In this document: positions 8,984 to 51,797 of the stretch, in pieces | Layout: every line of letters begins with the position of its first letter | How positions within the stretch are numbered: the stretch's first letter is position 1 | Origin: an uncultured bacterium | GTDB taxonomy: Bacteria; JAGRBM01; JAHCIT01 | Direction of reading: 5' to 3' | Assembly (NCBI GenBank): GCA_964621525.1 | Contig: CAZUMS010000007.1 | Location: 2,015-66,014, forward strand | Length of the DNA stretch: 64,000 bases | The notes under the pieces: model-generated | Told to the model about the DNA's origin: nothing | What the model saw: only the letters and a program-made list of their open reading frames with translations | Databases searched by the model: none | Translations under genes and position numbers: made by a program

Positions 8984-8984
8984 C

Positions 8985-9959: not shown

Positions 9960-9966
9960 AATCCTT

Positions 9967-16043: not shown

Positions 16044-16047
16044 GTCA

Positions 16048-20119: not shown

Positions 20120-20210
20120 CTTTCCGGACCGTTCCAGACTCCCCCGGAGTCCTGAAGGCCGGCTGCCGTTCCCTCCACGTCCGCTCCCCATGCGGCGCGG
20201 AGGGCTCATC

Positions 20211-22573: not shown

Positions 22574-23502
22574 GCCGCCGCCCTCCGCTCGAGAATCCGG
22601 AGCCGTGCGCTGCGGGCCCGCGGATTTGCTTCCAGTTCGGACTCAGACGGCGCGATATCCTTGAGCGCCCGGTAGGCAGGCACCTCAAGCGGCTGTCCGG
22701 TTACAGGGTCTTTTGCGGCGGACGAGAGCGCCCTGAACGCCTGTTTCACCATCCGGTCCTCGAGGGAGTGGAAGGTGATCACGGCAAACCGTCCTCCGGC
22801 CTTCAGCCGCGGCGGGATGGCCGTGAGCGCATGCTCAAGATTCCCAAGCTCGTCATTCACACGGATGCGGAGCGCCTGAAAGGTCTTCGTGGCGGGGTGA
22901 ATCTTCCGTCCCCGGCGGCCGCCCACGGCCTTTTCGACAACCGACGCCAGTTCGGCCGTCGTCTTTACCGGACGGGCGGCAATGATCGCCCGGGCAATCC
23001 GGCGGCTCTCGGTCTCGCCACCCAGATGGAACAGCGTATCGGCAAGCTGCTTTTCGGAAAGCCCGTTCACGAGGTCGGAAGCCGTCACCCGGAGCTCCGG
23101 GTCGAGGCGCATGTCGAGAGGTTCGTCCTTCTGGAAGGAAAGCCCTTTGCCTTCCAGCTGGAGCGACGACCAGCCGAGATCGAGCAGGACGCCATCCACC
23201 GCAGGAGTCCCTAGTTCGTCCAGGATTTCCGGCAGACGGGCGAAATTCGCGCGCCGGAGGACGACTCGGGTGGCGAGAGGCCCCAGCCGCCCGCCACCCG
23301 TCTCCAGCGCCCGGGGGTCGACGTCCAGCGCGATCACGCGTCCCCCTTCCGGCAGGCGGCGCAGCAGTTCCCTTGTGTGCCCGCCTGCCCCGAACGTACC
23401 GTCGGCATAAAGCCCACCCCGTTCGGGCATGAGCGCACCGGCCGCCTCTTCGAGGAGGACGCTCCGGTGCTCGTCTTCGCGCTGCTCATGCTCTTCCACC
23501 AC
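22570..23502 (-). CDS. rsmH: 16S rRNA (cytosine1402-N4)-methyltransferase RsmH (MraW)
   Basis: GTFGAGGHT SAM motif, DLGWSS..Q motif. Confidence 0.9.
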   Translation of the reverse strand: MVEEHEQREDEHRSVLLEEAAGALMPERGGLYADGTFGAGGHTRELLRRLPEGGRVIALDVDPRALETGGGRLGPLATRVVLRRANFARLPEILDELGTPAVDGVLLDLGWSSLQLEGKGLSFQKDEPLDMRLDPELRVTASDLVNGLSEKQLADTLFHLGGETESRRIARAIIAARPVKTTAELASVVEKAVGGRRGRKIHPATKTFQALRIRVNDELGNLEHALTAIPPRLKAGGRFAVITFHSLEDRMVKQAFRALSSAAKDPVTGQPLEVPAYRALKDIAPSESELEANPRARSARLRILERRAAA

Positions 23503-26077: not shown

Positions 26078-26956
26078 TCAACCCGCCCCTGCGTCTCCCG
26101 GCAGCTCGCGATGACGCACCCGGACCTGATACCCCTGTTCTCTCAAAAAACCGGCCAGCCAGAGGGCAAGGACAACGCTGCGGTGCTGGCCACCTGTGCA
26201 GCCAAAGGCGATGGTGAGCTGGCTCCTGCCCTCCCGAGCGAACCCCGGCAGGGCAGCCGAAATCAGAGCGCCCACATCGGAAGTAAACCCCTTCGCCTCG
26301 GGCCGAGCCATGACGTAGTCGTATACTGCCCGGTCGCTGCCGGTGAGGTCCCGGAGTTTTTCATCCCAGTAGGGGTTCGGCAGAAACCGGACATCGAAAA
26401 TGAAATTTGCCTCAGGCGGGATGCCCTGACGGTAGGCGAACGAGAGTATGTTCACTGCCAGCAGGGATTTCTGATCCACATCGGCTCCGCCGTACTGCCG
26501 GACCAGCAGGGAGCGGAGGTCATGGACCGACAGACCGGTGGTATCAACCACGCGGTTCGCCCGGCTCCTGACGGGCTCGAGCAGCGCCCGTTCCTTCCTG
26601 AGCCCCTCTTCGATCGAATCGTTCCCTTGGGCGAGCGGCGGACGCCTGCGGGTCGCTGTGAACCGGCGCAGCAGTGCCTCGTCGGAAGCTTCCAGGAAGA
26701 TGATCTCGGACGTACGGCCGGCTTCTTTCAGCTTGCGGAGCGCGGGGTCGAGGTCGGCGAGAAATGCCCCTTCGCGGACATCGACCCCCGCAACAACCAT
26801 TCCTTCGGCTCCCGGACGGCGACCGACCAGTTCCGCGAGATCGGGCAACAGACCCGCGGGGATATTGTCCACACAGTAAAAACCAAGATCTTCGAAAGTC
26901 TTAAGCGCCGTCGTCCGTCCGGCTCCAGACATGCCTGTGACAAGGATAAGCCGCAT
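26078..26956 (-). CDS. rapZ: RNase adapter protein RapZ (YhbJ)
   Basis: MRLILVTGMSGAGRTTALK Walker A, RapZ C-terminal region; conserved position after hprK. Confidence 0.9.
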   Translation of the reverse strand: MRLILVTGMSGAGRTTALKTFEDLGFYCVDNIPAGLLPDLAELVGRRPGAEGMVVAGVDVREGAFLADLDPALRKLKEAGRTSEIIFLEASDEALLRRFTATRRRPPLAQGNDSIEEGLRKERALLEPVRSRANRVVDTTGLSVHDLRSLLVRQYGGADVDQKSLLAVNILSFAYRQGIPPEANFIFDVRFLPNPYWDEKLRDLTGSDRAVYDYVMARPEAKGFTSDVGALISAALPGFAREGRSQLTIAFGCTGGQHRSVVLALWLAGFLREQGYQVRVRHRELPGDAGAG

Positions 26957-27925
26957 CTATTCGATATCCTCGTCCGCAGTCCCGGCCCCCGGCTTGCGGT
27001 CGGCGATCCGGCGGATCAGCCGTTCCTCAAATTCCCGGGCGGAATAAATACCCCGTTGCTTGAGCATCTGGTTGCGGGCGGCGACTTCAAGAATAGCCGT
27101 CATGTTACGGCCCGGTGTCACGGGAATAATGAGCAACGGGATCTTCACGCCCATCAGTTCGTGGAACTTCTCCTCGACGCCCAGCCGGTCGTAGTCCTGT
27201 TCCGCCTTCCACTCGACAAGCTGGACGACGAGCTCGATCTTCTTGCGCTCGCGGATCGATGAGATGCCGAACAGCTCCCGCATGTTCAGGATGCCGAGAC
27301 CGCGGATCTCCATGTGGTGCTGGAGCACTGCGCTGCCCATGCCGATCAGGTTCGCCGGCGGACGTTTCATGATCTCGACGACGTCGTCGGCGATGAACCT
27401 GTGCCCGTTCAGAACGAGATCGAGGGCACATTCGCTCTTTCCGATGCCGCTTTTCCCGATCAGCAGGATGCCGATACCGAAAACGTCCACCAGGACGCCG
27501 TGTACTGTCGTCCGTTCGGACAGGGCCTCCTCGAGTTTCCGGGAAACGCGTTGCACGAATACCGTCGTGTCGTGGGCTGTCCGGAGCAGCGGGACGTCCA
27601 TTTTTTCGCAGACCCGGCGCAGGATCTCCGGCACCGGCAGCCGGGACGTGATGACGAACCCGAGCACGCCCGAACGGAGCAGCCGTTCAAGATCGGCCTC
27701 ATGGCCGGAACCGGCACTCTCCAGGTAACTGATCTCGGCCTTGCCAAGGAGCTGAAGCCGTTCGGGATGGTGGTGATCCAGGAAACCGGTGAGGTGAAGG
27801 CCCGTTTTCTGGACTTTTTCGGACGTGACGGTACGTGCGAAAGCGTCATCGCTGCCCGCGATACGTTCGATTTCGAGCGAAAACTCGTCAGGTTCAAGCA
27901 GGTTCGCGAGCCTGATCGTGGTCAT
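26957..27925 (-). CDS. hprK: HPr kinase/phosphorylase
   Basis: GILLIGKSGIGKSECALDL P-loop and HprK C-terminal catalytic domain. Confidence 0.9.
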   Translation of the reverse strand: MTTIRLANLLEPDEFSLEIERIAGSDDAFARTVTSEKVQKTGLHLTGFLDHHHPERLQLLGKAEISYLESAGSGHEADLERLLRSGVLGFVITSRLPVPEILRRVCEKMDVPLLRTAHDTTVFVQRVSRKLEEALSERTTVHGVLVDVFGIGILLIGKSGIGKSECALDLVLNGHRFIADDVVEIMKRPPANLIGMGSAVLQHHMEIRGLGILNMRELFGISSIRERKKIELVVQLVEWKAEQDYDRLGVEEKFHELMGVKIPLLIIPVTPGRNMTAILEVAARNQMLKQRGIYSAREFEERLIRRIADRKPGAGTADEDIE

Positions 27926-29213: not shown

Positions 29214-30755
29214 CTAGTAGAATTTCCGCCGCTTGGAAGAGGATGGGATTCCGAGCTGTTCGCGATATTTGGTGAGCGCCCGGCGGGAGATACTGATTCC
29301 CTCTTCCTTCAGCCGGTTCACGATCTCCATGTCAGTCAGCGGTTCGCCAGTCTCTTCGCCGACCATCTTCTTCAGCCGTTCCTTCACCGACTCGCTGGCG
29401 ACTGAACCGCCATAGGTCGTTGAGATGCCGGAGTTGAAAAAATACTTGAGCTCGAAGATCCCCCGCGGCGTATGAACATACTTGTTGCTCGTGACGCGGG
29501 AGACGGTTGATTCGTGCATCCCGATGTCCTCGGCGACGTCGCGGAGGATCAGCGGTTTCAGGTGTGTGATGCCGTGGTCCAGGAATTCGCGCTGGAACTT
29601 CACGATCGATTCGACGACCCGGTAAATCGTCCGCTTGCGCTGGTGAACGCTCTTGATGAGCCATTCGGCATTGCGGAGCTTGTCCCGGACGTAATCCCGC
29701 GTCGCTTTGGAGCCGCTCCCCGCCTGGTTACGGAGCAGCTTAAGGTAGTGGGGGCTCACGCGAATAGCCGGCAGATCGTCGTCGTTCAGCACGATCCGGT
29801 AACCCCCCGCCGGATCCTTTTCGATATACACGTCCGGGACGATGTACTGGTTATCGGAGGTATCCTGCCAGCTTCGCGCGGGCTCGGGCTCGAGAGTCTT
29901 CAGATAGTTAAGTGCCTCGATGATTTTCTCGGGCGTCTCCTTGAGCCGGCGGGCCAGGGGTTTCACGTTCCGTCCGTCCACGAGATCAAGATGCTTGTCG
30001 ACGATTTCCCAGGACAGGGAACCATCAAACCCCAGCACCTCGAGCTGCGCCAGCATGCATTCGCGGAGGCTCCGCGAACAGATACCCGGAGGATCGAGGA
30101 GCCTGAGCTTGCCGATGACCGATTCTACCTCGGCTGCAACGGCCCCAGTTGCTTCGGCAATCTCCTCGCTGGTGATGGGCCTCGACTCCAGCCGGCTGCC
30201 ATCCACGCTCGTGGTTTCGGCAAGGTAGCCCCGCTCATCCAGGTTCTCGATGCAGTAGGCGGCGATCAGCCGTTCCTTCTCGTCAAAGTCCCCCATCTTG
30301 ATCTGCCAGAGGAGGTGCTCCGAGAGGGTTTCCGGCCGGGAGATCGATGACTGGATAAACTCCCGGGTCTCGTCGTCCATGCCATCGGAGGAAACGTTCG
30401 GGTGGGAACGTTCAAGATTGTAGGATTCGAGGTAGCTGTCCCAGTCGAACTCGCCGACCCCCTCCCCCTCCTGACCGGTAAGCTCTTTGCCAGGGGTTTC
30501 TGGAACGTCCACAACGGCAGGAGCCTCGACAGCGTCCTCCGGAAGAGGCCGCTCCTCCATCTGCTCAAGCATCGGGTTTTCGAGGAGTTGTTCCTGGATG
30601 TGCTCGGCCAGCTCAAGCCGGTTCAGCTGCAGAAGCTTGATCGCCATCTGCAACTGGGGCGTCATCGTGAGTGTCTGGCGCTGCTGAAGGCCAACACTCA
30701 TCTGCTGTCGGGGGCCGATCGACATTTCCCAAGTAATTCCAGCTACTTGAGACAC
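29214..30755 (-). CDS. rpoN: RNA polymerase sigma-54 factor
   Basis: N-terminal Gln/Leu-rich region I, core-binding domain, C-terminal RpoN box (ARRTVTKYRE-like RRALTKYREQLGI). Confidence 0.95.
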   Translation of the reverse strand: MSQVAGITWEMSIGPRQQMSVGLQQRQTLTMTPQLQMAIKLLQLNRLELAEHIQEQLLENPMLEQMEERPLPEDAVEAPAVVDVPETPGKELTGQEGEGVGEFDWDSYLESYNLERSHPNVSSDGMDDETREFIQSSISRPETLSEHLLWQIKMGDFDEKERLIAAYCIENLDERGYLAETTSVDGSRLESRPITSEEIAEATGAVAAEVESVIGKLRLLDPPGICSRSLRECMLAQLEVLGFDGSLSWEIVDKHLDLVDGRNVKPLARRLKETPEKIIEALNYLKTLEPEPARSWQDTSDNQYIVPDVYIEKDPAGGYRIVLNDDDLPAIRVSPHYLKLLRNQAGSGSKATRDYVRDKLRNAEWLIKSVHQRKRTIYRVVESIVKFQREFLDHGITHLKPLILRDVAEDIGMHESTVSRVTSNKYVHTPRGIFELKYFFNSGISTTYGGSVASESVKERLKKMVGEETGEPLTDMEIVNRLKEEGISISRRALTKYREQLGIPSSSKRRKFY

Positions 30756-30879: not shown

Positions 30880-32556
<1,677 letters not shown>

Positions 32557-39493: not shown

Positions 39494-42400
39494 TCAGGGT
39501 TGTCCGTAGTTCTTGTTGGAATGAACCGCCGTCGGCGGGTCGAACTTCAGCGGGGCATCTTGGATATCGGCTGCGGTAACGTATCGCTGGATTGACGAGT
39601 TCGCCGCCCCAGGAACAACCTGTGTAATTTCTCCGATACCAGGATCATAAGGGAGCCGGGTCGCCAGCGTATCACAGGGCCCTTCCGAGCAACGCTCCTT
39701 AATCGTAAAGCGCGTGCGGATCACTTCACGTGAACCCGGGCTTCCCGCCGGGAATATATAGGCATTGGAACCCGTCGACTGAAGGATTCGCACTCGATCA
39801 CTACCGGACTGCACAATCAAGTTATCCAAGAGTACGCCGAGTGGAGCCAGAAAGTCCTGGCCCGTGGGCGAAGCCGGATCGGTGGCGCTGTAAATTAGAT
39901 GGCCGTCGTTGAATTCAAAGACCAGCGTGAAACCGGCGAAATCCACCTGGCTCGAACCGGAAGTCCGGGTCATGGGGAACTGGTAGTTCACCTCGCGGCG
40001 CACGCTCTTCACGTTCACCGAGCCGCTCGTCTGACAAAGCGGCTGCTTGGCCACCGGGCAACCGTTCAGGGATGCAGTGACTGTGGTCGTCGCCGAGGAC
40101 GACGGCGCCAGCGCAGGATTACCGTCCGAGACGACGCAGGCCCGTCCCTGGAAGGTTGAGCCCACAAGGTCGGTGGCAACCGGCCCGCTCACCAGCGTGG
40201 TCTGGCAGGCGAACAGGGGATTGGCGCTCGGATTACCGCCGTTGTGACGATAGAGACTGCCGGTCGCACCCGAAAGGCTGAAATCGATGGGTGAGGTGGA
40301 ACCGGTATTGATATTGCCGCCGTTCAGCTTCTGGACCTTCACCACCGCCACCCGCGAGAAGAAACCGAGGTTACGGTAATCGGTATTCGCGCCGGCCGAA
40401 GTAATGCCGTATTCGGTGGCGAATGCCGCATTCGTTGCCGCGTGACGGGTGTAGATCGGGTCCGATGTCGGCACGCCGGAATTCAGGACTTCCGGATTCA
40501 CAAACTCGATTGTCACCCGGCCGGGCAGTTCGCCGTCCGGGGCAAGGTTAAATGTCACTTCGGACTGGACCAGCGTCACAGGATCGAGCTGCGGGCTTCC
40601 GGAGGTGGTCTCCTGCAGGCGCACGATCATCGCACCGGTCTGCGAAGCCGCACGGCTCGAGCTCCGGGCACGGACGTAAACAGCGGCAATACCGTCGACG
40701 ATGGGTTCGGTCACGTTGGCAATCGAGAAGTTGGTCGTTGCCAGACTGGGCGGACTACCCGTCGAATTGAAGATCGGGTTCATTCCCGACGTGACCACCG
40801 ACCCCTTGCCGAACTGAAGTTCGACGCCGTTGGATTCGCCGGAATCGCCATCGGCATCCGTTTCAACACCGTCCGCCGAACCGGCCGGATCGTCCACCGT
40901 TCCCGAAGAACGTCCCTTATCGATGAACCGGAGTGTGTAACCGGCATCGTTCGGCACCTGATAGGTAATCTCCGGATTCCCGCCGCCCGGGCACATGATC
41001 TGCCCGTCGACTGCCTGGCCGAAGTAAAGCTGACCGAAGGTCCGGACGCTGCACTCGTAATACATGCAGTCGCCGCCGTTCGGGAACGAACCCGATGCCC
41101 GGTTGTTGTTCGCCTCGATGGTCCGGCTGCTGCTGTTCTGGAGGCAGGCGGCAGGACTCGCAAAGGCCGGGACCTTGCGAGTGCAGGTCACTGCCACCGG
41201 CGACAAACAGCTGGGATTTACAACGACCGACTGGCTGTCCGACGGCAGGCCCACTGTCGAGGCGGACACCGGCGTTACCGACATGTTGATCCGGTAGGGA
41301 TTCGCCGGCGACGTGGCAACGAGCGGCGGCATCAGGAAGGCAAAACCGGTTTCGTTGTCGTCGAGATCGAGCGGCATCCAGCCTGCGGCGACCTCGTTCG
41401 TAATCGATAGATTGTCCTGACCGGCCGTCTGGACCGATGAGTTGTGATAAGCGCCCGAACCCCGGACTACATAGGGAGGCTGCGTCTGTTGCCCGGTATA
41501 CGTCATGCTGACGGCAACCTGTGTATCCTGGAACGTCGCATCTTCCTTGAGCTGGAAACAGTCGTCGTACGCGCCGAGATCGTTGACCGACCGGCAGGTG
41601 GACGGAAGGAGCTGAAGACGGAGCGGGATACGTGGAATATTGGTAATCCCTTCGCCGATCCGGTTGGAACAGATGTCTGCGGGAGTGCCGCGGAAAATGC
41701 CGAAGTCTCCACAGCGGGTATTCACCTCCGTCGAACAGGCCGACGAGTTGAATGCTCCACCCTCTGCAAAGCACTGGGGGGCATAGAGAATCGGCTTTTC
41801 CGGACACTGGGCGATCTTGAGCCCGGCGGTGTTCACGCCCGGCGTCACCGTACAACCACCAAGCGGCGTACTCGCGGCGGTCGGGTCCACCCACTTCACA
41901 ATGAAGGGGAGTGCCGGGTCCGGTCGCAGACGCAGACGGTTTTCCTCGCCGGCAACGCTCTTGCCGATGAAGTTCCGGGTTCCCCAGCCGCCCGCGTCCA
42001 CCGGCGCGAGAGCGGCCTGGCTGCCATAACGGCGGGTGGCCGGCGGCGTCGCCACCACGGGGCCGGCGGTGCTGAACTTGAGCTGCGGGAAGATCTTGGT
42101 AAAGCCCGCGCCGGAACGTACCTTGACCGAATTCCGCGTGACGCGGAGGAATACCGAGTTCACGCACGAATCGGCTGTACCAGAATCGCCGCAGGAAACC
42201 AGAATGCTGGGCGTCTTGGCGCCGTTGGCCGTCGAGCTGAAACCGCAATCGCTGGCGTTCAGAACGATCGAACTGTCGTTCGGATCAAGCGCGTTTTCGC
42301 AACTCACCTGGATCTGTGTGCCTTCCCGGAGGCAAACGACATTGCCGACACCGGGTGCATAAGCGTTGCAAGGCGCGTTCTGGGCATCTTCGTCGGCCGA

Positions 42401-43492
42401 GATGATGCGGATGTCGATGCGGAACTCGTCGGCCCGGCTCTGGCTGAGACCCACCCAGCCGTCAAGACCGCCGCCCGCGGGCGTTTCCGTCGGCAGGTTC
42501 GACAGTTCGGGGATATTCACCGGATTCGGCAGGAGGGCGTTCAGACGGGAAACAACACCCCAGTCCACACGGACCGGCGCGCCGACGTCCTCGAACACCG
42601 TCACCTCTTCATCGTCGAAAATCGCTCCGTTCCCCGAGAGTGCCGCCCGGACGGTAAGGGTTCCCCCGTCGGGATAGAGAGTCGTCGTGGTAAATGTGAC
42701 GCTTGCCGTGCCGTCAGCATCCAGCGTGACCGGAGTGGACGGAGTGAAGATGCCGAGCGGATCGGTCGAGGTGAAAATCAGCTGATAGGCTGCCGCCGGA
42801 GTCCCGGTAATCACATCGCCGTCCTGATTACGGAGCTGCGCCTTCACGGTTGTAGATCCGCCCGTCACGGTCAGCAGAAAGTCGTTGGCTTCGAAAATCT
42901 CGACCTCAGTGGGAATCGTCGGGTCGGGCTCGAAGACCACGTTGTTGATGTTCTGGATCAGCGTGGTGAGGTTCGGATTCCCCGAATCGATGTGCGATAC
43001 AGATACGCTGTAGTTACCGCTTTCAGTGGCGCGCACATAGAACGTCAGCGCCGCGCCGTCCGGAACTGCCGAGACCGTCACGGACTGGTAATGAACCGAG
43101 TCTGCCGCCGAATCGAGATGAATCCGGGCGCCCTCGGGCGCCGTCACGACCAGCCCGACCGGGGCCAGCGTCCCGGCCGCCTCGCCGGTGGCAGTGATCG
43201 ATGCCTGGATACGGTACTGCTCGACACCGTTGGCGATGCAGACCGTCGCGCCCGTCCCGGTGCAGCCAATTGCCGTCCGGGTTACGGACATGGAATATTC
43301 GACGTCGGTGGGAACCTCGACCGTGCGTGTTCCGCCACCACCACCGCCGCCGCCGCTACTGCCGCCGCCGCCACAACCCGCGCCGACGAGAACAACCGTC
43401 ATGAGCAGAACCCCCCAGCGCCAGCCGGAGAAAAACCGCTCTACAGAATTCCATTCAGTCATTGTTTTCCGAAAATACATCGCACTCTCCAC
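39494..43492 (-). CDS. Large (1332 aa) predicted surface lipoprotein of unknown function, Gly-linker then Cys-rich and Thr/Ser-rich regions
   Basis: Lipobox LVGAGC followed by GGGGSSGGGGGGGG linker; 4-kb uninterrupted ORF; ends 24 nt before the 2289-aa gene (same strand), suggesting an operon. Confidence 0.8.
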   Translation of the reverse strand: MESAMYFRKTMTEWNSVERFFSGWRWGVLLMTVVLVGAGCGGGGSSGGGGGGGGTRTVEVPTDVEYSMSVTRTAIGCTGTGATVCIANGVEQYRIQASITATGEAAGTLAPVGLVVTAPEGARIHLDSAADSVHYQSVTVSAVPDGAALTFYVRATESGNYSVSVSHIDSGNPNLTTLIQNINNVVFEPDPTIPTEVEIFEANDFLLTVTGGSTTVKAQLRNQDGDVITGTPAAAYQLIFTSTDPLGIFTPSTPVTLDADGTASVTFTTTTLYPDGGTLTVRAALSGNGAIFDDEEVTVFEDVGAPVRVDWGVVSRLNALLPNPVNIPELSNLPTETPAGGGLDGWVGLSQSRADEFRIDIRIISADEDAQNAPCNAYAPGVGNVVCLREGTQIQVSCENALDPNDSSIVLNASDCGFSSTANGAKTPSILVSCGDSGTADSCVNSVFLRVTRNSVKVRSGAGFTKIFPQLKFSTAGPVVATPPATRRYGSQAALAPVDAGGWGTRNFIGKSVAGEENRLRLRPDPALPFIVKWVDPTAASTPLGGCTVTPGVNTAGLKIAQCPEKPILYAPQCFAEGGAFNSSACSTEVNTRCGDFGIFRGTPADICSNRIGEGITNIPRIPLRLQLLPSTCRSVNDLGAYDDCFQLKEDATFQDTQVAVSMTYTGQQTQPPYVVRGSGAYHNSSVQTAGQDNLSITNEVAAGWMPLDLDDNETGFAFLMPPLVATSPANPYRINMSVTPVSASTVGLPSDSQSVVVNPSCLSPVAVTCTRKVPAFASPAACLQNSSSRTIEANNNRASGSFPNGGDCMYYECSVRTFGQLYFGQAVDGQIMCPGGGNPEITYQVPNDAGYTLRFIDKGRSSGTVDDPAGSADGVETDADGDSGESNGVELQFGKGSVVTSGMNPIFNSTGSPPSLATTNFSIANVTEPIVDGIAAVYVRARSSSRAASQTGAMIVRLQETTSGSPQLDPVTLVQSEVTFNLAPDGELPGRVTIEFVNPEVLNSGVPTSDPIYTRHAATNAAFATEYGITSAGANTDYRNLGFFSRVAVVKVQKLNGGNINTGSTSPIDFSLSGATGSLYRHNGGNPSANPLFACQTTLVSGPVATDLVGSTFQGRACVVSDGNPALAPSSSATTTVTASLNGCPVAKQPLCQTSGSVNVKSVRREVNYQFPMTRTSGSSQVDFAGFTLVFEFNDGHLIYSATDPASPTGQDFLAPLGVLLDNLIVQSGSDRVRILQSTGSNAYIFPAGSPGSREVIRTRFTIKERCSEGPCDTLATRLPYDPGIGEITQVVPGAANSSIQRYVTAADIQDAPLKFDPPTAVHSNKNYGQP

Positions 43493-43607: not shown

Positions 43608-43891
43608 TCTTTAGCGCTGACAGAGTTCCGTCAATAAGAGCATTATGGCGCTCCGGGTTCAAGCAAGGAACTGGCTTACGAATGATTACATCCAGAATCC
43701 GCAAGGAATTAAAGGATCTAGATCACGGAATTCACAGCGCGGCGCGTCAGCGGATCGTAACGCTTCGTTGCGGTCCGGTACGGGATTTTTCATAATGCCG
43801 GAACGGTGAGTGCTTCATTCCGCCTCGCGCGGAGGCAGGTCCCGGATAACCGGCGATTTGCCCTTTCCACCTCGGAGAAAACCGGAACCCC

Positions 43892-46800
43892 GTGTCAGAA
43901 GAATCCAAAAGCGATCCTGGCAGTGGCCAGCTTCTACAGCTTCTGGCCGAACGGGAAGAACTGCTCGCCCGGCTGGCGCGTGAGACAGCCCGCGAACGGG
44001 CCGAATCGCTTGAGTTCGTCAACCGGTTCCGCGACACGATCGCCGAAAAGGACCGGGCTCTGGAAAAACTGGCTGCCGGGGCCTCGGCCTCGGACGCGCA
44101 ACTCCGGTCGGCGCAGGAAAGCATCAGGGAACTGACCGGCAGGCTCGATACTGCTGAAACCCGCCTCCTGGAAGAACAGCAGAAATCGGATGGCATCCGG
44201 GCATCCTTCGATTCCGAACTGAAGAACCGGGACTCGGAGATTCTGCGGCTCAGCCGTGAACTCGCCGGCGAAGCCGCCGCGAGGCAGCAGATCGAGAAGG
44301 AGTTCTCTGCTGCCCGCGACGACTGGCGCTCCAGTGAACAGCGCCTGCATCAGGAAACCGTCAATGCCCAGAGCGAACTGCGGCTTTTGCGAGAGCGCAG
44401 CGCCGCACTCACGGCTGAACGGGACGGCTTCGCCGCCCGGCTCGAAGCCGGTCAGGAACGGACCGGAGCTCTCGGCCGTGAACTCGATGAACTCCGGGAG
44501 AAGGCCCGCAGCCTCGAAAACTCGCTTGCCGGTTCCCATGCCGCCGCCGAAACGGAACGCACCCGGCTGAACGGGCAGATCGACACGCTGCACCGTGAGC
44601 GGGAGACACTCGGACAAAATGTCCAGCGGCTGGAACGCGAGACGGCACGGCTCGAGGCTCTGCTCCGTGAGGCTCACGAACGCCTTGCCGAACGCGAGCG
44701 GGGGCTCGCACAGCTTGCCCGCTCGGCAGCAGCCGAGCGTATGGAAGCGACAAGGCGGCTCGACGCCGCAGCCGCTTCGGCCCTCGAATCCGCACAGCGG
44801 ATCACCTCGCTAGAGAGCCGCCTCGAAGCGGCAGTCCAGGAGGCGAGAGTCCAGATGGCGCGGGCCGAGCGGACGGCCCTCGACCTCAAATCCGAACAGG
44901 AGGCCCGTGCCTCCGATGCAGCCCGGTTCCACGAAGAACTGAGAACGCTGGACCGCCAGATCGCCGATCTCCGCGAACACCGGGCCCGTGAACAGGAACG
45001 GCTCGTTTCGGCCGAAGCGCTCGCCGCACAGTTTCGCGAGGAGGCCGGGCGCGCCCGGAGCGAAGCCTCCCTCGAGGCCGCCCGTCAGCAGGAAACCTTG
45101 CTCGCCGAACAGGGCGAACATGCCCGCCGGATGGCCGCACTCGATTCACGTCTCGTGTCGCTGGAGGCGGAGCGCATGTCAGTCGCCTCGCGTGCAGCCG
45201 CCGCCGAAACGGAGGCCGAAGGGCTCCGCCGGCAGCTCGCCGGACTTCAGGACGTGTTCCAGCAGATCCGGAGCGACAGCGCAGCCGCGTCCGGCCAGAA
45301 CCAGCAGACGATCCAGCAGGCAATCCAGAACTGGGAAAGCGTCTCCGCCGCAGCGGGCGCCCAGAGCGGCAAGCTGGCTCAAACCGTTTCCGAGCTGGAA
45401 AGCCGCCTTTCGGAAATCGCACGCCGGCACGACGAACGGCGGGATGAGATCCTCAAGCTTGAGAACCTGCTCGCCGAACGGGAAAAAATCCTGGCCGATA
45501 TTGTCGGCGGGCAGAGCGAGGAGGTCCGCCGCTACGAAAGCCAGCTTGAGGAGGCCCGTTCGCGAATTCGCAGCCTCGAAGCGGCCGTCACAGCATCTGG
45601 CGGCAGTCTGCCGGCAGCGCTGGCGGCATCAGACAGCGCGGGCTCGATCCAGGATGAGCTCGCCCGCCTCCGGGCGGAAACGCACGGTCTCTCCAAATCG
45701 CTCGATGCCGCCGTCCGCAAGGCAATCGCCGAAAGCGGGCGTTCGCCGGAACTCGCCGGGCAACTGGCACGGATCGAAACGAAACTCTCGGCTTTGAACG
45801 CCGAGGACCGGGACCGGCGGTTCGCCGAACTTCTTCAGGCCGCACAGGCCGACGCCAGGCAGGTTCAGGAGCAGGTGCGAACGGAGCTGCGCAACCTGCT
45901 CCAGAAGATTTCCGGAAGCCCTCAGGGCCCGAAGGACCCGCTCCGCCTCGATCCGGCGGATCTGAAACGTATCCAGACGGATATCGATCAGCGCCTGACC
46001 CGCAGCGAACGGCAGGTAAACGATCTTGCCGCAGCTTTCGAGAACTTCATCCGGCAGCCGCAGACGACGCCGAATTCCGGCGCGCTGGCAAAAACCATCG
46101 AGGCGGTCCGGACGGAAACCCGTGCTTCGACGGAACTCCTCCGGCGCGAAATCGCGGCCATCGCCGCCCAGACGCCGGGGACGGCAGCGGCCAAAACCGC
46201 CGATCTCAAGCTCGCCACCCAGCTCGCCGCCCTCGAAAAGCGGTTACCGCTGCCGGGCACGCGGATGGCCGGAACGGACCGGGCGATAGCCGCCACCATC
46301 GCCGCCGCCGGGTTCCTGCTGATCGTCTTCGGTCTTGCGGGCGTCGCCTGGCGGCAGTGGAGGCTCGAAAACCGTCTTCTTACCTCTTATCAACCAGAAC
46401 TCTTCTCGGGCAGGTCCGCCGCTTCGGCGCTGGAAGCGCCGGAACTCGATACTCCCCTGCCCTACGAAACGGATGGAGATCAGGCAGAAATTTCGGGGCG
46501 GGCCTCACAGGCCCAGGGAGTCGTCATGCACATCGATGGCGTGTTTTTCGCAGCCGTCCCTGTGCGGGGAGGAAAATTCCTCGTGGACCGGATCCCGCTC
46601 GAACCCGGCAGCCACCGGGTCGAACTCTGGGCGTTTACGCCCGGGCAGGGGTTCTCGCCGCCCGTATCCGGAGATTTCGTCCGCAGGCAGTCGGCCGAAG
46701 CCGCACGGATTACCGAGCCGCCCCGGACAGTCCTGACCGGCCTGAACGTGGAACGCGGCCCCACCGACCGCCGCGAGATCGGCCTTACGTTCGATGGCGA

Positions 46801-47452
46801 CGGCGCGGCCGGTGCCGAAGTCGTCATGGACACCCTTAGGCAGAAGCGAATCCAGACGACAGTGTTCCTCACCGGTAAATTTATCGACGAGAACCCAGCG
46901 CTCGTACGCCGCATCGTCCAGGACGGCCATGAGGTCGGCAACCACACGGACACGCACCCGCACCTCACCACCTTCAATGAGAACAACCGCCACGACACCC
47001 GGCCTGAAGTGAACAAGGCGTGGTTTCAGGACGAACTGGTGCGGACATCGGCGAAATTCGAAGAGGTGACGGGGAAACCCATGTCGCACATCTGGCGGGC
47101 GCCCTACGGCGAGGTGAACGCCGAAATCCTCCGCTGGGCGCACGAACTGGGCTACCGGCACGTTGGCTGGACGCGGGACTATACGCGGAGCCTCACGCTC
47201 GACTCGCTGGACTGGGTCATCAACCACAGGGACAAGAACTACCAGCCCGGCGGAAAGATCGTGGACCGGCTTCTCAGCTTCGAGCGGAACTCCCGTGACG
47301 GCGTCAACGGGGGGATCGTGCTGATGCACCTCGGCACCCAGCGCCAGCTGGACGACTCCGTTGCCCTGCACCTGCCCCGGCTCATCGATGAATGGCGGGA
47401 CCGCGGCTACCGGTTCGTGAAAGTCTCGACGTGGCTTCCCGAAGAATCCTGA
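43892..47452 (+). CDS. 1186-aa fusion protein: N-terminal ~780-aa coiled coil, one TM helix, beta-sandwich-like linker domain, C-terminal NodB-type polysaccharide deacetylase (CE4)
   Basis: GTG start; Ala/Glu/Arg/Leu-rich heptad-like sequence for ~780 aa; TM AIAATIAAAGFLLIVFGLAGVAW (46283-46360); NodB motifs TFDGDG, HTDTH (H-S/T-x-x-H), RAPY (RxPY), LMH. Confidence 0.8.
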   Translation: MSEESKSDPGSGQLLQLLAEREELLARLARETARERAESLEFVNRFRDTIAEKDRALEKLAAGASASDAQLRSAQESIRELTGRLDTAETRLLEEQQKSDGIRASFDSELKNRDSEILRLSRELAGEAAARQQIEKEFSAARDDWRSSEQRLHQETVNAQSELRLLRERSAALTAERDGFAARLEAGQERTGALGRELDELREKARSLENSLAGSHAAAETERTRLNGQIDTLHRERETLGQNVQRLERETARLEALLREAHERLAERERGLAQLARSAAAERMEATRRLDAAAASALESAQRITSLESRLEAAVQEARVQMARAERTALDLKSEQEARASDAARFHEELRTLDRQIADLREHRAREQERLVSAEALAAQFREEAGRARSEASLEAARQQETLLAEQGEHARRMAALDSRLVSLEAERMSVASRAAAAETEAEGLRRQLAGLQDVFQQIRSDSAAASGQNQQTIQQAIQNWESVSAAAGAQSGKLAQTVSELESRLSEIARRHDERRDEILKLENLLAEREKILADIVGGQSEEVRRYESQLEEARSRIRSLEAAVTASGGSLPAALAASDSAGSIQDELARLRAETHGLSKSLDAAVRKAIAESGRSPELAGQLARIETKLSALNAEDRDRRFAELLQAAQADARQVQEQVRTELRNLLQKISGSPQGPKDPLRLDPADLKRIQTDIDQRLTRSERQVNDLAAAFENFIRQPQTTPNSGALAKTIEAVRTETRASTELLRREIAAIAAQTPGTAAAKTADLKLATQLAALEKRLPLPGTRMAGTDRAIAATIAAAGFLLIVFGLAGVAWRQWRLENRLLTSYQPELFSGRSAASALEAPELDTPLPYETDGDQAEISGRASQAQGVVMHIDGVFFAAVPVRGGKFLVDRIPLEPGSHRVELWAFTPGQGFSPPVSGDFVRRQSAEAARITEPPRTVLTGLNVERGPTDRREIGLTFDGDGAAGAEVVMDTLRQKRIQTTVFLTGKFIDENPALVRRIVQDGHEVGNHTDTHPHLTTFNENNRHDTRPEVNKAWFQDELVRTSAKFEEVTGKPMSHIWRAPYGEVNAEILRWAHELGYRHVGWTRDYTRSLTLDSLDWVINHRDKNYQPGGKIVDRLLSFERNSRDGVNGGIVLMHLGTQRQLDDSVALHLPRLIDEWRDRGYRFVKVSTWLPEES

Positions 47453-47481
47453 AGCGCCCGGCCTCCTCGTGGTTTGTCTAT

Positions 47482-47742
47482 ATGGTCCGCTGTTCGGACG
47501 GCACGCTCTACACAGGCGCCACCACCGACATCGGGAAGCGGCTTACGGCCCACAATACGGGCCGGGGCGCCCGGTACACCCGCAGCCGCCATCCCGTTAC
47601 CCTCGCCTACCTTGAAGAAGTCCAGGACCGGTCCAGCGCATTGCGACGCGAAGCAGCGATTAAACGTTTTGACAAGCCCGCCAAGGAAGACCTTGCAAGC
47701 AAATTTATCTCGAACCAACGAATCTTTCTGAAGCGTTTTTAA
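47482..47742 (+). CDS. GIY-YIG nuclease superfamily small protein (UPF0213/YhbQ-like)
   Basis: VYMVRCSDGTLYTGATTDIGKRLTAHN...GARYT matches the GIY-YIG core. Start placed at ATG 47482, after the upstream gene stop; the ORF-track start at 47392 overlaps the deacetylase gene and is rejected. Confidence 0.7.
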   Translation: MVRCSDGTLYTGATTDIGKRLTAHNTGRGARYTRSRHPVTLAYLEEVQDRSSALRREAAIKRFDKPAKEDLASKFISNQRIFLKRF

Positions 47743-48353: not shown

Positions 48354-48794
48354 ATGAACGGCAGCAACGGGATCCATGAGCGGCTCCGGGAACTCAGGGA
48401 GCTTCTCGGCCTTACGGCAGGCGAGTTCGCCCGCAAGGCGGGTGTGAAGGCACGGACGATCGCCCTCTGGGAAGAGGAAATGGAAAGGCCGGGAGCCGAC
48501 GACCTCGGACGGCTTCAGAAAGCCTTCAACGTGGACCTGAACTGGCTTCTCGCCGCCGACTACCGGCCCGGGTACGCCGGTCAGGTCACGGTACGCGGCG
48601 GACGGATCGAGGATCCGCTCCTGTTCCACAATGGCAGAGAACCCCGGGAAGCGGTCCGTGTCGTCAGCCAGTATCGCTCCATGAGCAGCGATGACCGGAG
48701 CTTCGTGCACAAGGTCTTCGAAAGTATCGCCGAGATGCCGCCGGTCCTTGAAGCACCCTCGGTAAATCCAGGCGCCATGAAACGCCGGAACTGA
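48354..48794 (+). CDS. XRE-family (Cro/C1-type HTH) transcriptional regulator
   Basis: LRELRELLGLTAGEFARKAGVKARTIALWE HTH_3 pattern; RBS GGAGG 9 nt upstream of ATG. Confidence 0.7.
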   Translation: MNGSNGIHERLRELRELLGLTAGEFARKAGVKARTIALWEEEMERPGADDLGRLQKAFNVDLNWLLAADYRPGYAGQVTVRGGRIEDPLLFHNGREPREAVRVVSQYRSMSSDDRSFVHKVFESIAEMPPVLEAPSVNPGAMKRRN

Positions 48795-48809: not shown

Positions 48810-50528
48810 TCAGACCGGCAGATCGACACCTTTTGCGAGAAGCGCGCGGCGCTCCAGCATGGATCGCAGTGCTTCAAACCGGCCACGCCAGTCCTGCTGG
48901 CAGAGCCGCGTCCGTTCTTCCGGGGAGAGTGAAACCCGGATACCATACAGATGTTCCAGCTCAAGAAGCATTTCGTCGATCAGGATCGAGACACTGTCGG
49001 ATCTGAGCGGCACGCCGGACAGCCGGACCACCGGAATCTGGACACCGCCGAACTGGTCGGAGCCGAACAGGCCGCCAGGACCGAACCGCTCCTTGGGCAG
49101 CGGACTCCAGACCACAACTTTGGCGCCATCCTGAAGCAATGCCCCGAGCGCGAATTCGAACTTGGGCCGCGCAACCGGCGAGGAAGCGTCGATCCAGAGC
49201 AGTGCACGCTCGGGCTCCGTCACGGCTCCGAGCAGCGCTCTCGCCGCCCGCTGCTCGTCCTCCTCGCGCGCGGGATAGACGGCCTCATGGAGTTTCGTCC
49301 GGCCAGATGCCGCCAGCAGCGCATGGGCGACAAAACCAGGATGCTCACCTTCCAGCAGAATGACCCCGGCTCCGTTCCGGATCGCTCCGAAGACGGCCTG
49401 TGAGACCGTGAGCACCTCGGGGGCAGCCGAAGGCCAGAGCAGTTCGGGCGAACCGGAAATGCGGCTCTCGTTGCTCCAGCCGGTGAGCCGGATTCGGCTC
49501 TCCGGGTTGAGGACCGCCTGTCCCGGCCGGAGCCGGCGCAGCAGGCCGTCCAGCCGAACCATGTCCTTTCGGCCGTACAGCTTCGATCTCGCCTCGGGCG
49601 CCAGCCGGATCGCCGGCACGCCCCCGCCTGGTCCTTCGAACACGAGGCCCACCGGACTCTCCATCATGCCGGACAGCCGCTCAACGAGTGCCTCCACCGA
49701 CGGAAGTTCGGCCACCATTTTTTCCAGCCGGGCAAGTTCCCCGAGGAACCGCGACCGTTCGTTCGGCCACAGATTGCCTATCGAGCCGAAGAGGTCGGGG
49801 AGCGCATCCGAAATCACGATCCGCGTGTAGACCGTGACCGGCACCATCATCAGCCCCGGACCGACGAAATAAAGATGATTGTCATCGAACAGGACCGGCA
49901 GCACCTGATTGGTCATCATGACCACCGCAAAGGTTCCGAAGAACGTCGCCGCCGCGATCAGGATGCGGTTGCGGTTGTTCCAGCGGATCCGAAGCCAGTT
50001 GCGGTGGATCCACCAGATCTCGAACCCGAACAGTCCGAAATGGAAAAGCGAGGGGAGCATCATCAACGGGCCATAGTGCCAGACCGGCTGCCCGTGCTCG
50101 ATCGTCACCGATTCGATCGTGAGCGGCGTCAGAACCGCCGGCAGGTGTGTGGCGATCCCGAGCACGAGCACCGGCACAGCCAGTCTGGGGGACGGAGGCT
50201 CGAGTGTGGCGAAAGCCAGGAGGAGAAAGAACCCCGCAGGATGACCGACGGCCGGGCCCACGAAAGCGAGGCGTCCGGCGATGAGCAGTGCCTCCTCCGA
50301 ACCGGCCAGCCAAATGCCTGCATAGGCGAATATCCAGGCGGCAATACTGAGACTCAGTACAAATGCCCAGTACCCTGACGAAGGAATCAGGCTCCGCTTC
50401 CAGGCCACGCAGCCCGCCGTGATCGCATAGATACCGAACAGAGCCAGAAGCATGATGCTAACCAGTACAGTAGCCTTCCCGGAAGAAATAGCTTCCGTGC
50501 TTCGAAAATACCTGACTCCAGTATACAA
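48810..50528 (-). CDS. 7TM receptor (7TMR-DISM-like) fused to a degenerate sigma-54-activator AAA+ domain; no DNA-binding domain
   Basis: Seven predicted TM helices in the first ~260 aa. C-terminal region aligns motif by motif to bEBP central domains (ILLEGEHPGFVAHALL vs LITGESGTGKE..ARAIH; closing ...CQQDWRGRFEALRSMLERRA vs ..YDWPGNVRELENVIERA). Walker A Lys, Walker B DE and GAFTGA are absent. Confidence 0.65.
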   Translation of the reverse strand: MYTGVRYFRSTEAISSGKATVLVSIMLLALFGIYAITAGCVAWKRSLIPSSGYWAFVLSLSIAAWIFAYAGIWLAGSEEALLIAGRLAFVGPAVGHPAGFFLLLAFATLEPPSPRLAVPVLVLGIATHLPAVLTPLTIESVTIEHGQPVWHYGPLMMLPSLFHFGLFGFEIWWIHRNWLRIRWNNRNRILIAAATFFGTFAVVMMTNQVLPVLFDDNHLYFVGPGLMMVPVTVYTRIVISDALPDLFGSIGNLWPNERSRFLGELARLEKMVAELPSVEALVERLSGMMESPVGLVFEGPGGGVPAIRLAPEARSKLYGRKDMVRLDGLLRRLRPGQAVLNPESRIRLTGWSNESRISGSPELLWPSAAPEVLTVSQAVFGAIRNGAGVILLEGEHPGFVAHALLAASGRTKLHEAVYPAREEDEQRAARALLGAVTEPERALLWIDASSPVARPKFEFALGALLQDGAKVVVWSPLPKERFGPGGLFGSDQFGGVQIPVVRLSGVPLRSDSVSILIDEMLLELEHLYGIRVSLSPEERTRLCQQDWRGRFEALRSMLERRALLAKGVDLPV

Positions 50529-50669: not shown

Positions 50670-51797
50670 TTGTCCGAGCCTCTCTACATTGTCGGACAGA
50701 ATGATTCGCTGATCCTGACGATCAGCGAGTGGGCATGCCGCCATGGGCTCGATGCCACCCGCAAGGAATCCGGGCGGATCCAGCCGCCGGGACGCCTGGT
50801 CTGGATCGCGGAGCGTTACGCCTCAGAGATTCCCCGGGAGTTGCTGCCCCTGATTGCCAGCTTCCCGAGCCTCGCCTGCCTGCCTCACGATGCCGAAGCC
50901 CTTGCCCGTAAGTGCATCGATACCGGTTTCGCTGAGCAGGTGTTCATCCCGACCTCCGAACGCGTTCTTTGCTCTAAACTGGAATTGCTTATCGATAATA
51001 CGAAATCCACGGACGCCGGCGGATACACCGGCCACGGCACCATGATGCTTGCTTCCCTTGCGGCTTCGCTGGCAGGACGCCGCACGCTGGAACTCGCCCG
51101 TCAGTCGGCCCTGCTCCCTGCTCCTGTCCTGCTTGCCGGTGAAGAGGGCGTGGAGTTCGAACCACTCGCACGGGCCGTCCATGCTGCCGGGCTGCGTTCG
51201 GTTGGACCGTTTGTGAGAGTCGATGCCTCCACGACTGGCGACCGGATGATGTCCGAACGGATCCCCGAAGCCTGTGGCCAGGCAGCCGGAGGGACACTAT
51301 TCATTCACCGTGTGGATATGCTCGATCCCGACGCACAGAAAATCCTTTCCTTCAGGCTCTCCATGCGAAATCCCGGAGGACGGGAACCCAGCGGCTGGAA
51401 GCTGATCGCATCGTCGGTTTCCAGTCTCGATGCACTCGCGCGGAGCGGGAACTACCTTCGCACGCTTGCCGACCAGCTCTCTGTTTTCGTGCTTCAGATT
51501 CCGCCCGTGAGGGAGCGCCTGGACGGTTTTGCGGTACTCTGCAGCGAACTGCTCCGGGAACTTGCCGCGCAGCTCAAGGTTCCCGAAAAGCGGCTTAGTC
51601 CCGAGGTGACGAAGCAGCTTGCCACCTGCCGATGGCCATTCAATGTCGCTGAACTGCGGGCCGTTCTGGAGAACGGAATGAGCCGTTCCCTCGGCGACGA
51701 AATCGGTGTTGAAGAGATCAGCCTGCCGGGCGAGACCAGCCCGCTGGAGCGGAAGCTGTGGCTCACACCTGACGGACAGGGCGGCAAGCCAAACTGA
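50670..51797 (+). CDS. Pseudo-receiver domain fused to a degenerate sigma-54-activator AAA+ domain; no GAFTGA and no HTH
   Basis: Central region aligns to NtrC: VLLAGEEGVEFEPLARAVHAAGLRSVGPFVRVDAS / GGTLFIHRVDMLDPDAQKILSFRL / IPPVRERLDGFAVLCSELL / RWPFNVAELRAVLEN; Walker A GEEGVEFE (Lys lost), Walker B DE lost, GAFTGA loop deleted. N-terminal ~110 aa are REC-like without the acceptor Asp. Confidence 0.7.
   Translation: MSEPLYIVGQNDSLILTISEWACRHGLDATRKESGRIQPPGRLVWIAERYASEIPRELLPLIASFPSLACLPHDAEALARKCIDTGFAEQVFIPTSERVLCSKLELLIDNTKSTDAGGYTGHGTMMLASLAASLAGRRTLELARQSALLPAPVLLAGEEGVEFEPLARAVHAAGLRSVGPFVRVDASTTGDRMMSERIPEACGQAAGGTLFIHRVDMLDPDAQKILSFRLSMRNPGGREPSGWKLIASSVSSLDALARSGNYLRTLADQLSVFVLQIPPVRERLDGFAVLCSELLRELAAQLKVPEKRLSPEVTKQLATCRWPFNVAELRAVLENGMSRSLGDEIGVEEISLPGETSPLERKLWLTPDGQGGKPN

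Follow-up and report, generated by a model that had tools for sequence, protein, structure and literature searches.

The window analysed here, a stretch of 64,000 nucleotides from an uncultured bacterium, carries on its forward strand a single gene whose product joins a long coiled-coil arm, through one transmembrane helix and an immunoglobulin (Ig)-like beta-sandwich, to a C-terminal NodB domain of carbohydrate esterase family 4 (CE4). Directly upstream, and divergently transcribed, lie the genes of two giant envelope proteins. The parts of the fusion protein are given below in positions of the window, with structures modelled by AlphaFold2 (AF2) and model confidence given as the predicted local distance difference test (pLDDT).

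43892-47452 (+): whole gene for coiled coil, transmembrane helix, beta-sandwich and NodB domain; 1,186 amino acids (aa), GTG start, stop included
43916-46234 (+): alpha-helical, heptad-periodic region, residues 9-781, about 10 helices (composition, periodicity, AF2)
46274-46354 (+): single transmembrane helix, residues 795-821 (Kyte-Doolittle peak 2.41; AF2 helix, pLDDT about 94)
46463-46684 (+): seven-strand Ig-like beta-sandwich, residues 858-931, with a conserved VRGGKF motif (AF2; predicted periplasmic)
46754-47449 (+): CE4/NodB domain, residues 955-1186 (Pfam, AF2, Foldseek)
46787-46801 (+): motif MT1, TFDGD, residues 966-970
46943-46957 (+): motif MT2, HTDTH, residues 1018-1022
within 46973-47011 (+): clade-specific 12-aa insertion NENNRHDTRPEV between MT2 and MT3
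47096-47107 (+): motif MT3, RAPY, residues 1069-1072
47201-47215 (+): motif MT4, DSLDW, residues 1104-1108
47321-47329 (+): motif MT5, LMH, residues 1144-1146

The open reading frame (ORF) runs through 1,186 codons with no internal stop, the GC content at its third codon positions (GC3, 0.75) is in line with that of the genes around it, and a conserved N-terminal motif common to the orthologues supports the start of the 1,186-aa protein. In public assemblies an identical protein, P0001, is found on two contigs of different sources. The same domain order is intact in five further lineages of uncultured bacteria; proteins of this architecture are P0002 (1,046 aa), P0123 (1,139 aa), an ORF at locus L011 (1,209 aa), P0124 (1,023 aa) and P0125/P0256 (1,165 aa). 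A partial relative, P0003, comes from a metagenome-assembled genome (MAG) of the Bdellovibrionota, the source names place the whole coiled-coil deacetylase clade in uncultured 'Deltaproteobacteria'/Bdellovibrionota, and a scan of a genome collection returned only three species representatives of this clade. The preliminary description of this DNA had read the fusion as one gene and proposed a search for orthologues of the same architecture; that search recovered the five other lineages, and six independent lineages with the identical fusion confirm that these are not two genes joined.

The catalytic end of the protein is well defined. Pfam PF01522 matches residues 956-1090 with 98.4 bits (cut-off 23.1, E 3.8e-28), and the AF2 model of residues 781-1186 (pLDDT 90) folds into the (beta/alpha) barrel of NodB proteins. 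The top Foldseek match is BA3943, followed among others by Bc1960 of Bacillus cereus (E 7e-17, template-modelling (TM) score 0.88 target-normalised, root-mean-square deviation (rmsd) 2.3 Å) and PdaA; the structures of Bc1960 (4L1G/5O6Y) and PdaA (1W17/1NY1) show the same NodB barrel with target-normalised TM-scores of 0.79-0.88 and rmsd of 2.1-2.9 Å. The four motifs noticed at the outset (TFDGD, HTDTH, RAPY and LMH) are all in place, and DSLDW joins them as MT4. Across 122 homologues D968, H1018, H1022, R1069, D1104, D1107, W1108 and H1146 are invariant; among these D968 is the catalytic base, H1018 and H1022 are the metal-binding histidines, R1069 is the MT3 arginine and H1146 the catalytic histidine. 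With the CE4 peptidoglycan deacetylases, which besides Bc1960 and PdaA include PgdA of Streptococcus pneumoniae (2C1G) and Bd3279 of Bdellovibrio (5JP6), the protein shares MT2 (H-x3-H), MT3 (R-x-P-Y), MT4 (D-x-x-D-W), MT5 (L-x-H) and the base aspartate, at an identity of 22-27%. It differs from them in MT1 (TFDGD in place of the canonical TFDDG; PdaA has TFDNG), in the 12-aa insertion between MT2 and MT3, and in the transmembrane anchor; the coiled coil of about 795 aa is absent from all of them. All NCBIfam scores lie far below their cut-offs: the PdaA equivalog TIGR02884, the best match, reaches 95.9 bits against 298, the PgdA-type models NF045821 and NF045820 reach 77 against 400 and 56.5 against 800, and rhizobial NodB (TIGR04243) reaches 80.2 against 240. 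No named equivalog therefore includes the protein; fold and profile make its domain a member of CE4, albeit a non-canonical one.

Residues 795-821 are the sole hydrophobic segment of the protein. The preliminary description was right about a single transmembrane helix but had placed it at 46283-46360, slightly downstream of the position given above. An N-terminal signal sequence is absent, and the helix comes only after 795 highly charged residues. Homologues of the segment comprising transmembrane helix, sandwich and NodB domain start either with a bare signal-anchor or with a Cys-rich, B-box-like zinc ribbon (6-8 Cys, before the helix in 39 of the 122 sequences; Pfam PF00643 is recorded for P0037), and zinc ribbons are a cytoplasmic type of domain. 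Because no signal peptide stands before the 795 charged residues, and because of what precedes the helix in the homologues, a topology with the N-terminus inside and the C-terminus outside is very likely from the sequences, and the arm is thus predicted with high confidence to be cytoplasmic. The NodB domain, like that of the CE4 peptidoglycan deacetylases, is predicted to be extracytoplasmic. The initial remark that NodB domains act outside the cytoplasm is overbroad as a general statement, as rhizobial NodB itself is cytoplasmic. Between helix and enzyme, the beta-rich linker of the first description proved to be residues 822-954, inside which the beta-sandwich is modelled (AF2 model m0d099e99912f, pLDDT 90-96, with the strands at positions 78-151 of a 406-aa query); the sandwich is conserved in the homologues, and Pfam Big_6 is recorded for one of them, P0051.

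The arm (residues 1-790) consists of 17.5% Ala, 12.9% Glu, 12.9% Arg and 12.5% Leu, with 12 prolines across the first 830 residues. Measured against composition-preserving shuffles in windows of 56 residues, the power of the 3.5-residue period exceeds the 99th percentile in most windows of residues 1-805; the periodicity drops out at about 246-350, 351-450 and 596-690 and is absent from the C-terminal 380 aa. AF2 of residues 1-822 predicts helix throughout, in segments 9-62, 68-219, 237-405 (at 169 residues the longest of the arm), 468-538, 543-568, 581-614, 618-674, 688-720, 729-760 and 770-781, with residues 406-467 unstructured or of low confidence. The first reading of a coiled coil of about 780 aa thus holds as far as the helical, heptad-periodic character is concerned, but 'almost uninterrupted' was slightly generous, as the arm is segmented, more so past residue 405. 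Profile searches with Pfam and NCBIfam yielded no domain above cut-off in this region and sub-threshold coiled-coil matches alone, in line with the initial expectation that the N-terminus is not a known domain. BLOC1_2, RPW8, SMC, Rad50 and Mplasa_alph_rch appeared as candidates, all as sub-threshold generic coiled-coil matches for which homology was rejected; SMC_prok_B, for instance, scored 32.4 bits against a cut-off of 567, with coverage confined to the coiled-coil part of the profile. The Pfam scan found no ATPase domain, so that the protein does not belong with the SMC/Rad50-type ATPases. In its extended heptad-periodic alpha-helix it resembles the coiled-coil-rich cytoskeletal or scaffold proteins, which are a functional class and not a homology family.

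Within the arm, conserved islands stand out, for example QSEEVRRYE...RIRSLEAA...AVRK..AESGR..ELA..L.RIE.KL, and a motif of about 22 residues, LLxERExxLAxLxRExxxER, is present three times.

43937-44014 (+): motif copy 1, residues 16-41
44678-44755 (+): motif copy 2, residues 263-288
45464-45541 (+): motif copy 3, residues 525-550, which starts the best-conserved island of the coiled coil

A hidden Markov model (HMM) of this motif, derived from the P0001, P0002 and P0123 copies, recovers it in the distant P0124 and P0125 at 15.9, 15.2 and 9.8 bits, compared with a maximum of 6.4 in 200 shuffles. The conservation of these islands suggests specific contacts rather than a mere spacer.

The architecture is not a one-off. 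A word-indexed search with residues 781-1186 found 417 homologues at E <= 1e-10, and profile A1, made from two full-length sequences, gave 355 at E <= 1e-30 in an exhaustive search; the wider-clade homologues are 36-54% identical over up to 95% of residues 781-1186. Negatives of the word-indexed search for fragments of long proteins are uninformative: the full-length query returned two proteins because coiled-coil words saturated the candidates, a query with residues 495-640 returned nothing, not even itself, and the C-terminal query omitted P0001 and P0002. A scan of metagenomes with generic NodB patterns turned up, among the matches listed, the wider clade alone. A typical member measures 370-480 aa and comprises a transmembrane helix, a beta-sandwich and NodB, and the hosts, diderm bacteria from the environment, include Acidobacteriota, Thermodesulfobacteriota, NC10, KSB1 and others. 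The window protein shares all the features by which we define this uncharacterised clade, namely a single transmembrane helix, the sandwich, TFD[GAS][GD] and an R-H-x-T insertion between MT2 and MT3.

In the wider clade the cytoplasmic N-terminus is modular and consists of nothing, of a B-box zinc ribbon or of long helical regions. The zinc-ribbon relatives (e.g., P0004, P0019 and P0092) are true homologues of residues 795-1186 at 36-54% identity, with the same transmembrane helix, sandwich, NodB motifs and MT2-MT3 insertion. Their cytoplasmic part, however, is 20-160 aa long and often a 7-Cys zinc ribbon, in contrast to the coiled coil of about 795 aa here, their MT1 reads TFDGG instead of TFDGD, and in the loci examined they have no giant-protein neighbours. 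Among the best 150 representatives of clusters at 50% identity, 18 carry a charged helical N-terminus of at least 290 aa (31-39% D/E/K/R) before the single transmembrane helix. Six of these belong to the group of the window protein (NodB identity 54-85%), nine to a second group and three are singletons. The NodB domains of the two groups are 46% identical, and either group shares 46-47% with the short forms (47% for the group of the window protein); because identity between the groups is no higher than to the short forms, the NodB comparison indicates that long helical modules sit on distinct branches of the enzyme tree, in at least two clades.

The second long-helical clade (P0169, P0173, P0182, P0188, P0192, P0200, P0206, P0224 and P0204; loci L009 and L091) resembles the first in having a charged helical cytoplasmic region (290-1,170 aa), one transmembrane helix, an Ig-like domain and NodB. 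Its N-terminal module is its own, with a CxxCxNPDCP motif, helical repeats of 35-40 aa and a juxtamembrane ELKRQIRKAFENLT, and its gene neighbourhoods differ from those of the window's clade; the gene of P0173 is flanked by an Amidase_3 gene on one side and by a che-type chemosensory operon on the other. The literature search found no paper describing a fusion of coiled coil, transmembrane helix and NodB, and no curated family model covers one. In this sense the architecture is undescribed, as first stated, but it recurs in 18 of 150 representatives.

Upstream of the fusion gene, the divergent arrangement with the giant surface-protein genes that had been noticed from the sequence is real and conserved across the loci of the clade. 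The following features make up this side of the locus.

39494-43492 (-): divergent neighbour 1, a Gly/Thr/Ser-rich lipoprotein of 1,332 aa
32600-39469 (-): divergent neighbour 2, a secreted protein of 2,289 aa
43667-43726 (no strand): conserved non-coding block, found in four lineages
43676-43690: invariant 15-mer TTACGAATGATTACA (also L001 9812-9826, L004 9694-9708, L011 9607-9621)
43641-43648: conserved CATTATGG, -10-like

The lipoprotein carries the lipobox LVGAG|C with Gly at +2, followed by a long poly-Gly/Ser tether; its matches in the PDB are spurious, being Gly/Ser linkers of single-chain variable fragments that align to this tether. The giant secreted protein starts with a signal peptide and has an N-terminal dockerin-like motif of the calcium-loop type, GDxxxxGxPDGxIxxxD, recognised by eye and not by Pfam. 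In all clade loci for which upstream DNA is available (the window, L001/2, L004/5, L011, L007/8 and L090), the two genes stand head-to-head with that of the deacetylase, the lipoprotein measuring about 1,200-1,380 aa and the giant secreted protein about 2,200-2,360 aa across the clade. Sequence comparison confirms both members as homologues in L001, L004 and L007. Lipoprotein homologues occupy the same position in L001, L004 and L011 (48% identity) and in L007/L008 (25% identity, E 8e-11), and giant secreted-protein homologues do so in L001 and L004 (59-62% identity) and in L007 (27% over about 2,000 aa, E 2e-118). In L090 a gene of lipoprotein size and one of at least 2,200 aa stand at the matching positions, matched by size and position and not by homology. 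The opposite flank varies, with GIY-YIG, Fis-type HTH, HTH_3 and sigma-54 activator genes here and with FUR, L21, L27 and Obg in L007 and L090. Because this other flank is not conserved, gene order defines the conserved unit as a three-gene divergent module.

The region between the lipoprotein and deacetylase genes is 400 bp long. Its 15-mer is exact in four lineages, while 0.32 matches with up to three mismatches are expected by chance in the window. The block also contains the 10-bp palindrome GATCTAGATC, which reads GATTTAAATC in L001, L004 and L011, its symmetry kept by paired changes. A structured RNA was considered for the block and rejected, as RNAalifold gave -0.96 kcal/mol and few consistent pairs; because support for RNA structure is weak, the block is probably an operator or promoter element common to the divergent genes. 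No sigma-54 promoter was found in the divergent intergenic region, with window-wide matches below chance, and Rfam gave no matches across the whole window.

The remaining neighbours are mentioned for completeness. Downstream of the deacetylase gene lie, in order:

47392-47742 (+): small GIY-YIG nuclease-domain ORF, 116 aa (Pfam E 2e-17); its longest reading overlaps the deacetylase 3' end by 61 nt, and the true start is probably further downstream; present in L004, absent from L001
47853-48278: Fis-type HTH_8 protein, 141 aa, adjoining the deacetylase gene in the four closest lineages
48354-48794: HTH_3 protein
48810-50528: polytopic membrane protein of about 570 aa with an AAA-lid-like C-terminus
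50670-51797: truncated-looking sigma-54 activator without receiver domain

Directly downstream of the giant secreted-protein gene, on the other side, are found rapZ (26078-26956, -), hprK (26957-27925, -), rpoN (29214-30755, -) and pyrG, encoding CTP synthase (30880-32505, -).

On the firm ground of gene integrity, domain order, fold, conservation and synteny, we propose a picture in which a coiled-coil scaffold positions a periplasmic glycan deacetylase that works with the giant envelope proteins, and we give this picture as a whole an even chance. The protein would cross the inner membrane once (bitopic), with its N-terminus inside and its C-terminus outside, and its Ig-like sandwich may hold a CE4 de-N/O-acetylase near the outer face of the cytoplasmic membrane. 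The clade would carry interchangeable cytoplasmic modules, of which the window's lineage has a coiled coil of 630-820 aa. This coiled coil would dimerise (in parallel) or oligomerise under the membrane, its conserved motif islands would bind cytoplasmic partners, and the assembly together with these partners would fix the place, clustering or stoichiometry of the periplasmic enzyme's action. That the arm assembles, binds partners through its islands and thereby sets where the enzyme acts or clusters is a proposition for which we see the odds as balanced. Local modification of the envelope glycan could, in turn, let the giant lipoprotein/secreted structure assemble, anchor or pass. Given the divergent coupling to a large lipoprotein of the outer-membrane type and a giant secreted protein, and the shared control region, this would be the most likely role, and we slightly favour such a functional coupling, in which the deacetylase modifies glycan locally for assembly or anchoring of the giant-protein structure.

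Parts of this arrangement have parallels elsewhere. Crescentin, Scy/FilP, Ccrp of Bdellovibrio and EzrA contain long heptad-periodic helices rich in Ala, Glu, Arg and Leu, although their likeness to the arm is compositional only. In EzrA, Csd5 of Helicobacter pylori and CcfM of Magnetospirillum a single transmembrane helix links a coiled coil to envelope processes. These scaffold proteins show no detectable sequence homology to the arm, and none of them is known to have a catalytic CE4 domain. A precedent in diderm bacteria is SddA (YibQ) of Escherichia coli, a periplasmic deacetylase of denuded glycan strands that is linked to EnvC, a case of a dedicated peptidoglycan deacetylase coupled genetically and spatially to an envelope machine with a coiled coil (bioRxiv 10.1101/2025.02.18.638797). 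SddA, however, belongs to PF04748 and not to PF01522, is soluble in the periplasm, and has its coiled coil in a separate periplasmic partner, EnvC, rather than fused to the enzyme.

Several observations weigh against the proposed scaffold-positioned deacetylase. The AF2 monomer model of the N-terminus is of low to modest confidence (pLDDT 64, predicted TM-score 0.29), and the charges flanking the transmembrane helix are balanced, so that the positive-inside rule does not settle the topology. Between close orthologues the arm is 35-37% identical, compared with 68-71% for the C-terminal part, and its length ranges between 634 and about 818 aa across the group of the window protein. With divergence this fast and lengths this variable, the arm is unlikely to act as a precise ruler, and some of it may serve as a neutral spacer. 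Of the Asp-His-His metal triad of canonical CE4 enzymes, the Asp is missing (TFD-G-D). Both giant neighbours are without relatives in sequence searches of Pfam, NCBIfam and the PDB, the wider-clade neighbourhoods are heterogeneous, mostly housekeeping, and give no consistent clue to a substrate, and the clade is known from uncultured MAGs and metagenomes alone, with no isolate among its carriers.

As for the glycan, we tentatively name peptidoglycan, at somewhat less than even odds, with the glycan of the surface proteins ranked second. Because the window holds a full dcw cluster (5053-23502, -), located 21 kb from the deacetylase gene, the organism makes peptidoglycan.

5053-6615 (-): ftsZ
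8985-9992 (-): ddl
10929-12326 (-): murC
12449-13561 (-): murG
13558-14700 (-): ftsW
14697-16043 (-): murD
16048-17124 (-): mraY
17124-18662 (-): murF
18551-20332 (-): murE
20211-22205 (-): ftsI
22570-23502 (-): mraW

At the expected position of murB, the ORF 9956-10999 has no Pfam match. A linkage of the deacetylase gene to the dcw cluster was considered and rejected, since the intervening genes are housekeeping genes and L007 and L090 lie in a different context.

The protein could alternatively deacetylate an exopolysaccharide, a capsule or a glycoprotein glycan, as PgaB, IcaB, PelA or Agd3 do, acting on a polymer or on glycans of the giant proteins while the coiled coil docks to a cytoplasmic synthase or secretion machine. 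CE4 domains do act on many acetylated glycans, as the names of the PDB matches also illustrate, the tight, conserved linkage of the gene is with a pair of giant Gly/Thr/Ser-rich proteins, secreted or lipid-anchored, and not with cell-wall genes, and its MT1 is unlike that of proven peptidoglycan N-acetylglucosamine deacetylases. An exopolysaccharide operon of the PgaB, IcaB or PelA type would nevertheless bring synthase and export genes, and none were found beside the gene, at the orthologous loci or in 14 wider-clade loci; the same holds for glycosyltransferase-synthase, Wzx/Wzy, PCP/OPX and Pel/Pga/Ica-type genes adjoining it. The best sequence and fold matches, moreover, are peptidoglycan deacetylases and PdaA. 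This alternative is accordingly a possible but rather unlikely one.

Among the wider-clade neighbours, Amidase_3 occurs twice and FtsK and a heptosyltransferase once each. The two Amidase_3 genes (L132 5865-6959 and L009 4917-6395) adjoin two unrelated members of the NodB clade and recall the CwlD-PdaA and amidase-SddA pairings, and they are too few to call. In NC10-type and related loci, a same-strand DsbD_TM-type gene and then a gene of 346-363 aa precede a short-form deacetylase gene (L017 8366-9406, L016 8372-9463, L101 7039-8130), perhaps as a small operon that has been conserved; in L017 the 346-363-aa gene has a MshEN domain of the type that binds cyclic di-GMP.

A second alternative is that the NodB domain is a non-catalytic glycan-binding module, so that the protein would serve as a structural tether between a coiled-coil layer in the cytoplasm and the cell wall or surface layer. 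The preliminary description had missed that the position of the metal-binding Asp of MT1 is occupied by Gly969, and in nearly all 122 homologues this position is Gly, Ala or Ser (TFD-[GAS]-G in the wider clade). The top Foldseek match, BA3943, is itself a CE4 pseudoenzyme with a deviant MT1. The layout of sandwich plus NodB also matches that of the Bacillus anthracis/Bacillus cereus proteins Ba0330, Ba0331, Bc0361 and BA3943, in which a Fn3-like sandwich precedes NodB at the membrane surface, and a glycan-binding role has already been proposed for the Fn3-NodB proteins of Bacillus anthracis. Ba0330 and Ba0331 are lipoproteins. Proteins of the Ba0330 type are Gram-positive and lack a cytoplasmic domain, and the orientation of the two domains differs between the window protein and its Fn3-NodB match (rmsd 9 Å over both domains). 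Canonical CE4 enzymes have an Asp-His-His triad with MT1 reading TFDDG, and members with a deviant MT1, BA3943 and Ba0150 among them, lack activity or metal (PMC6115787). Unlike BA3943, however, the window protein keeps every invariant catalytic residue other than the metal Asp: the base Asp, both metal-binding His, the MT3 Arg, the MT4 Asp and Trp and the MT5 His are invariant in 122 sequences from many phyla, as is expected of an active enzyme. PdaA of Bacillus subtilis, an active N-acetylmuramic acid deacetylase, likewise lacks the second MT1 Asp (TFDNG). In the window's clade an Asp stands one position later (D970 of TFDGD), is invariant in six of six members and could complete the metal site. 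We therefore regard a loss of catalysis as improbable.

More improbable still would be an arm that is simply a fast-evolving, low-complexity helical extension without partner or assembly role, which would leave a plain membrane-anchored deacetylase. The divergence and variable length already described (634-818 aa), the missing domain matches, an arm barely alignable with that of P0124 (E 2e-4) and the absence of a long arm from most clade members are what such a spacer would look like. On the other hand, a frame of 1.9-2.4 kb has been kept open in six lineages, the heptad periodicity is significant, strongly conserved islands and a recurring motif are common to distant members, and at least two distinct NodB clades carry long helical modules on the cytoplasmic side.

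Finally, a coiled-coil gene and a signal-anchored deacetylase gene merged by frameshift, sequencing error or chimeric assembly might be suspected at 62-66% GC, where long spurious ORFs are common, in a window with many overlapping ORFs that stems from a metagenome-type assembly, but the identical protein on two contigs of different sources, the uniform GC3 along the gene and the five further lineages from independent samples with no stop between coiled coil and transmembrane helix leave this practically no probability, and by its sequences the orthologue set has already refuted it.

Taking the scaffold-positioned deacetylase one step further, we speculate that the deacetylase with its coiled-coil anchor, the large lipoprotein with its Gly/Ser tether and the giant secreted protein might constitute one trans-envelope apparatus that has so far escaped notice. 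A cytoplasmic coiled-coil lattice would then be coupled, mechanically or spatially, through the inner membrane and a locally de-acetylated peptidoglycan patch to the outer-membrane lipoprotein and to a surface fibre or adhesin of megadalton scale. We consider such an apparatus a long shot; if true, bacteria related to the Bdellovibrionota would possess a device that resembles a focal adhesion or anchors a surface layer.

Deacetylases of the cell wall and of surface glycans are usually seen as soluble or simply anchored envelope enzymes, and to our knowledge it is largely unknown how diderm bacteria confine deacetylase action in space. If the coiled coil were only a spacer, the finding would shrink to another membrane-anchored CE4 enzyme. 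The repeated gain of cytoplasmic modules within the clade (zinc ribbons, helical repeats and coiled coils, the longest about 1,170 aa) nevertheless suggests positioning or control from the inside out. Should this be true, bacteria would commonly put cell-wall de-acetylation under direct cytoplasmic spatial control. Altogether, the strict pairing of the deacetylase with two orphan giants offers a concrete and testable module, and with it a first handle on the function of these giant proteins.

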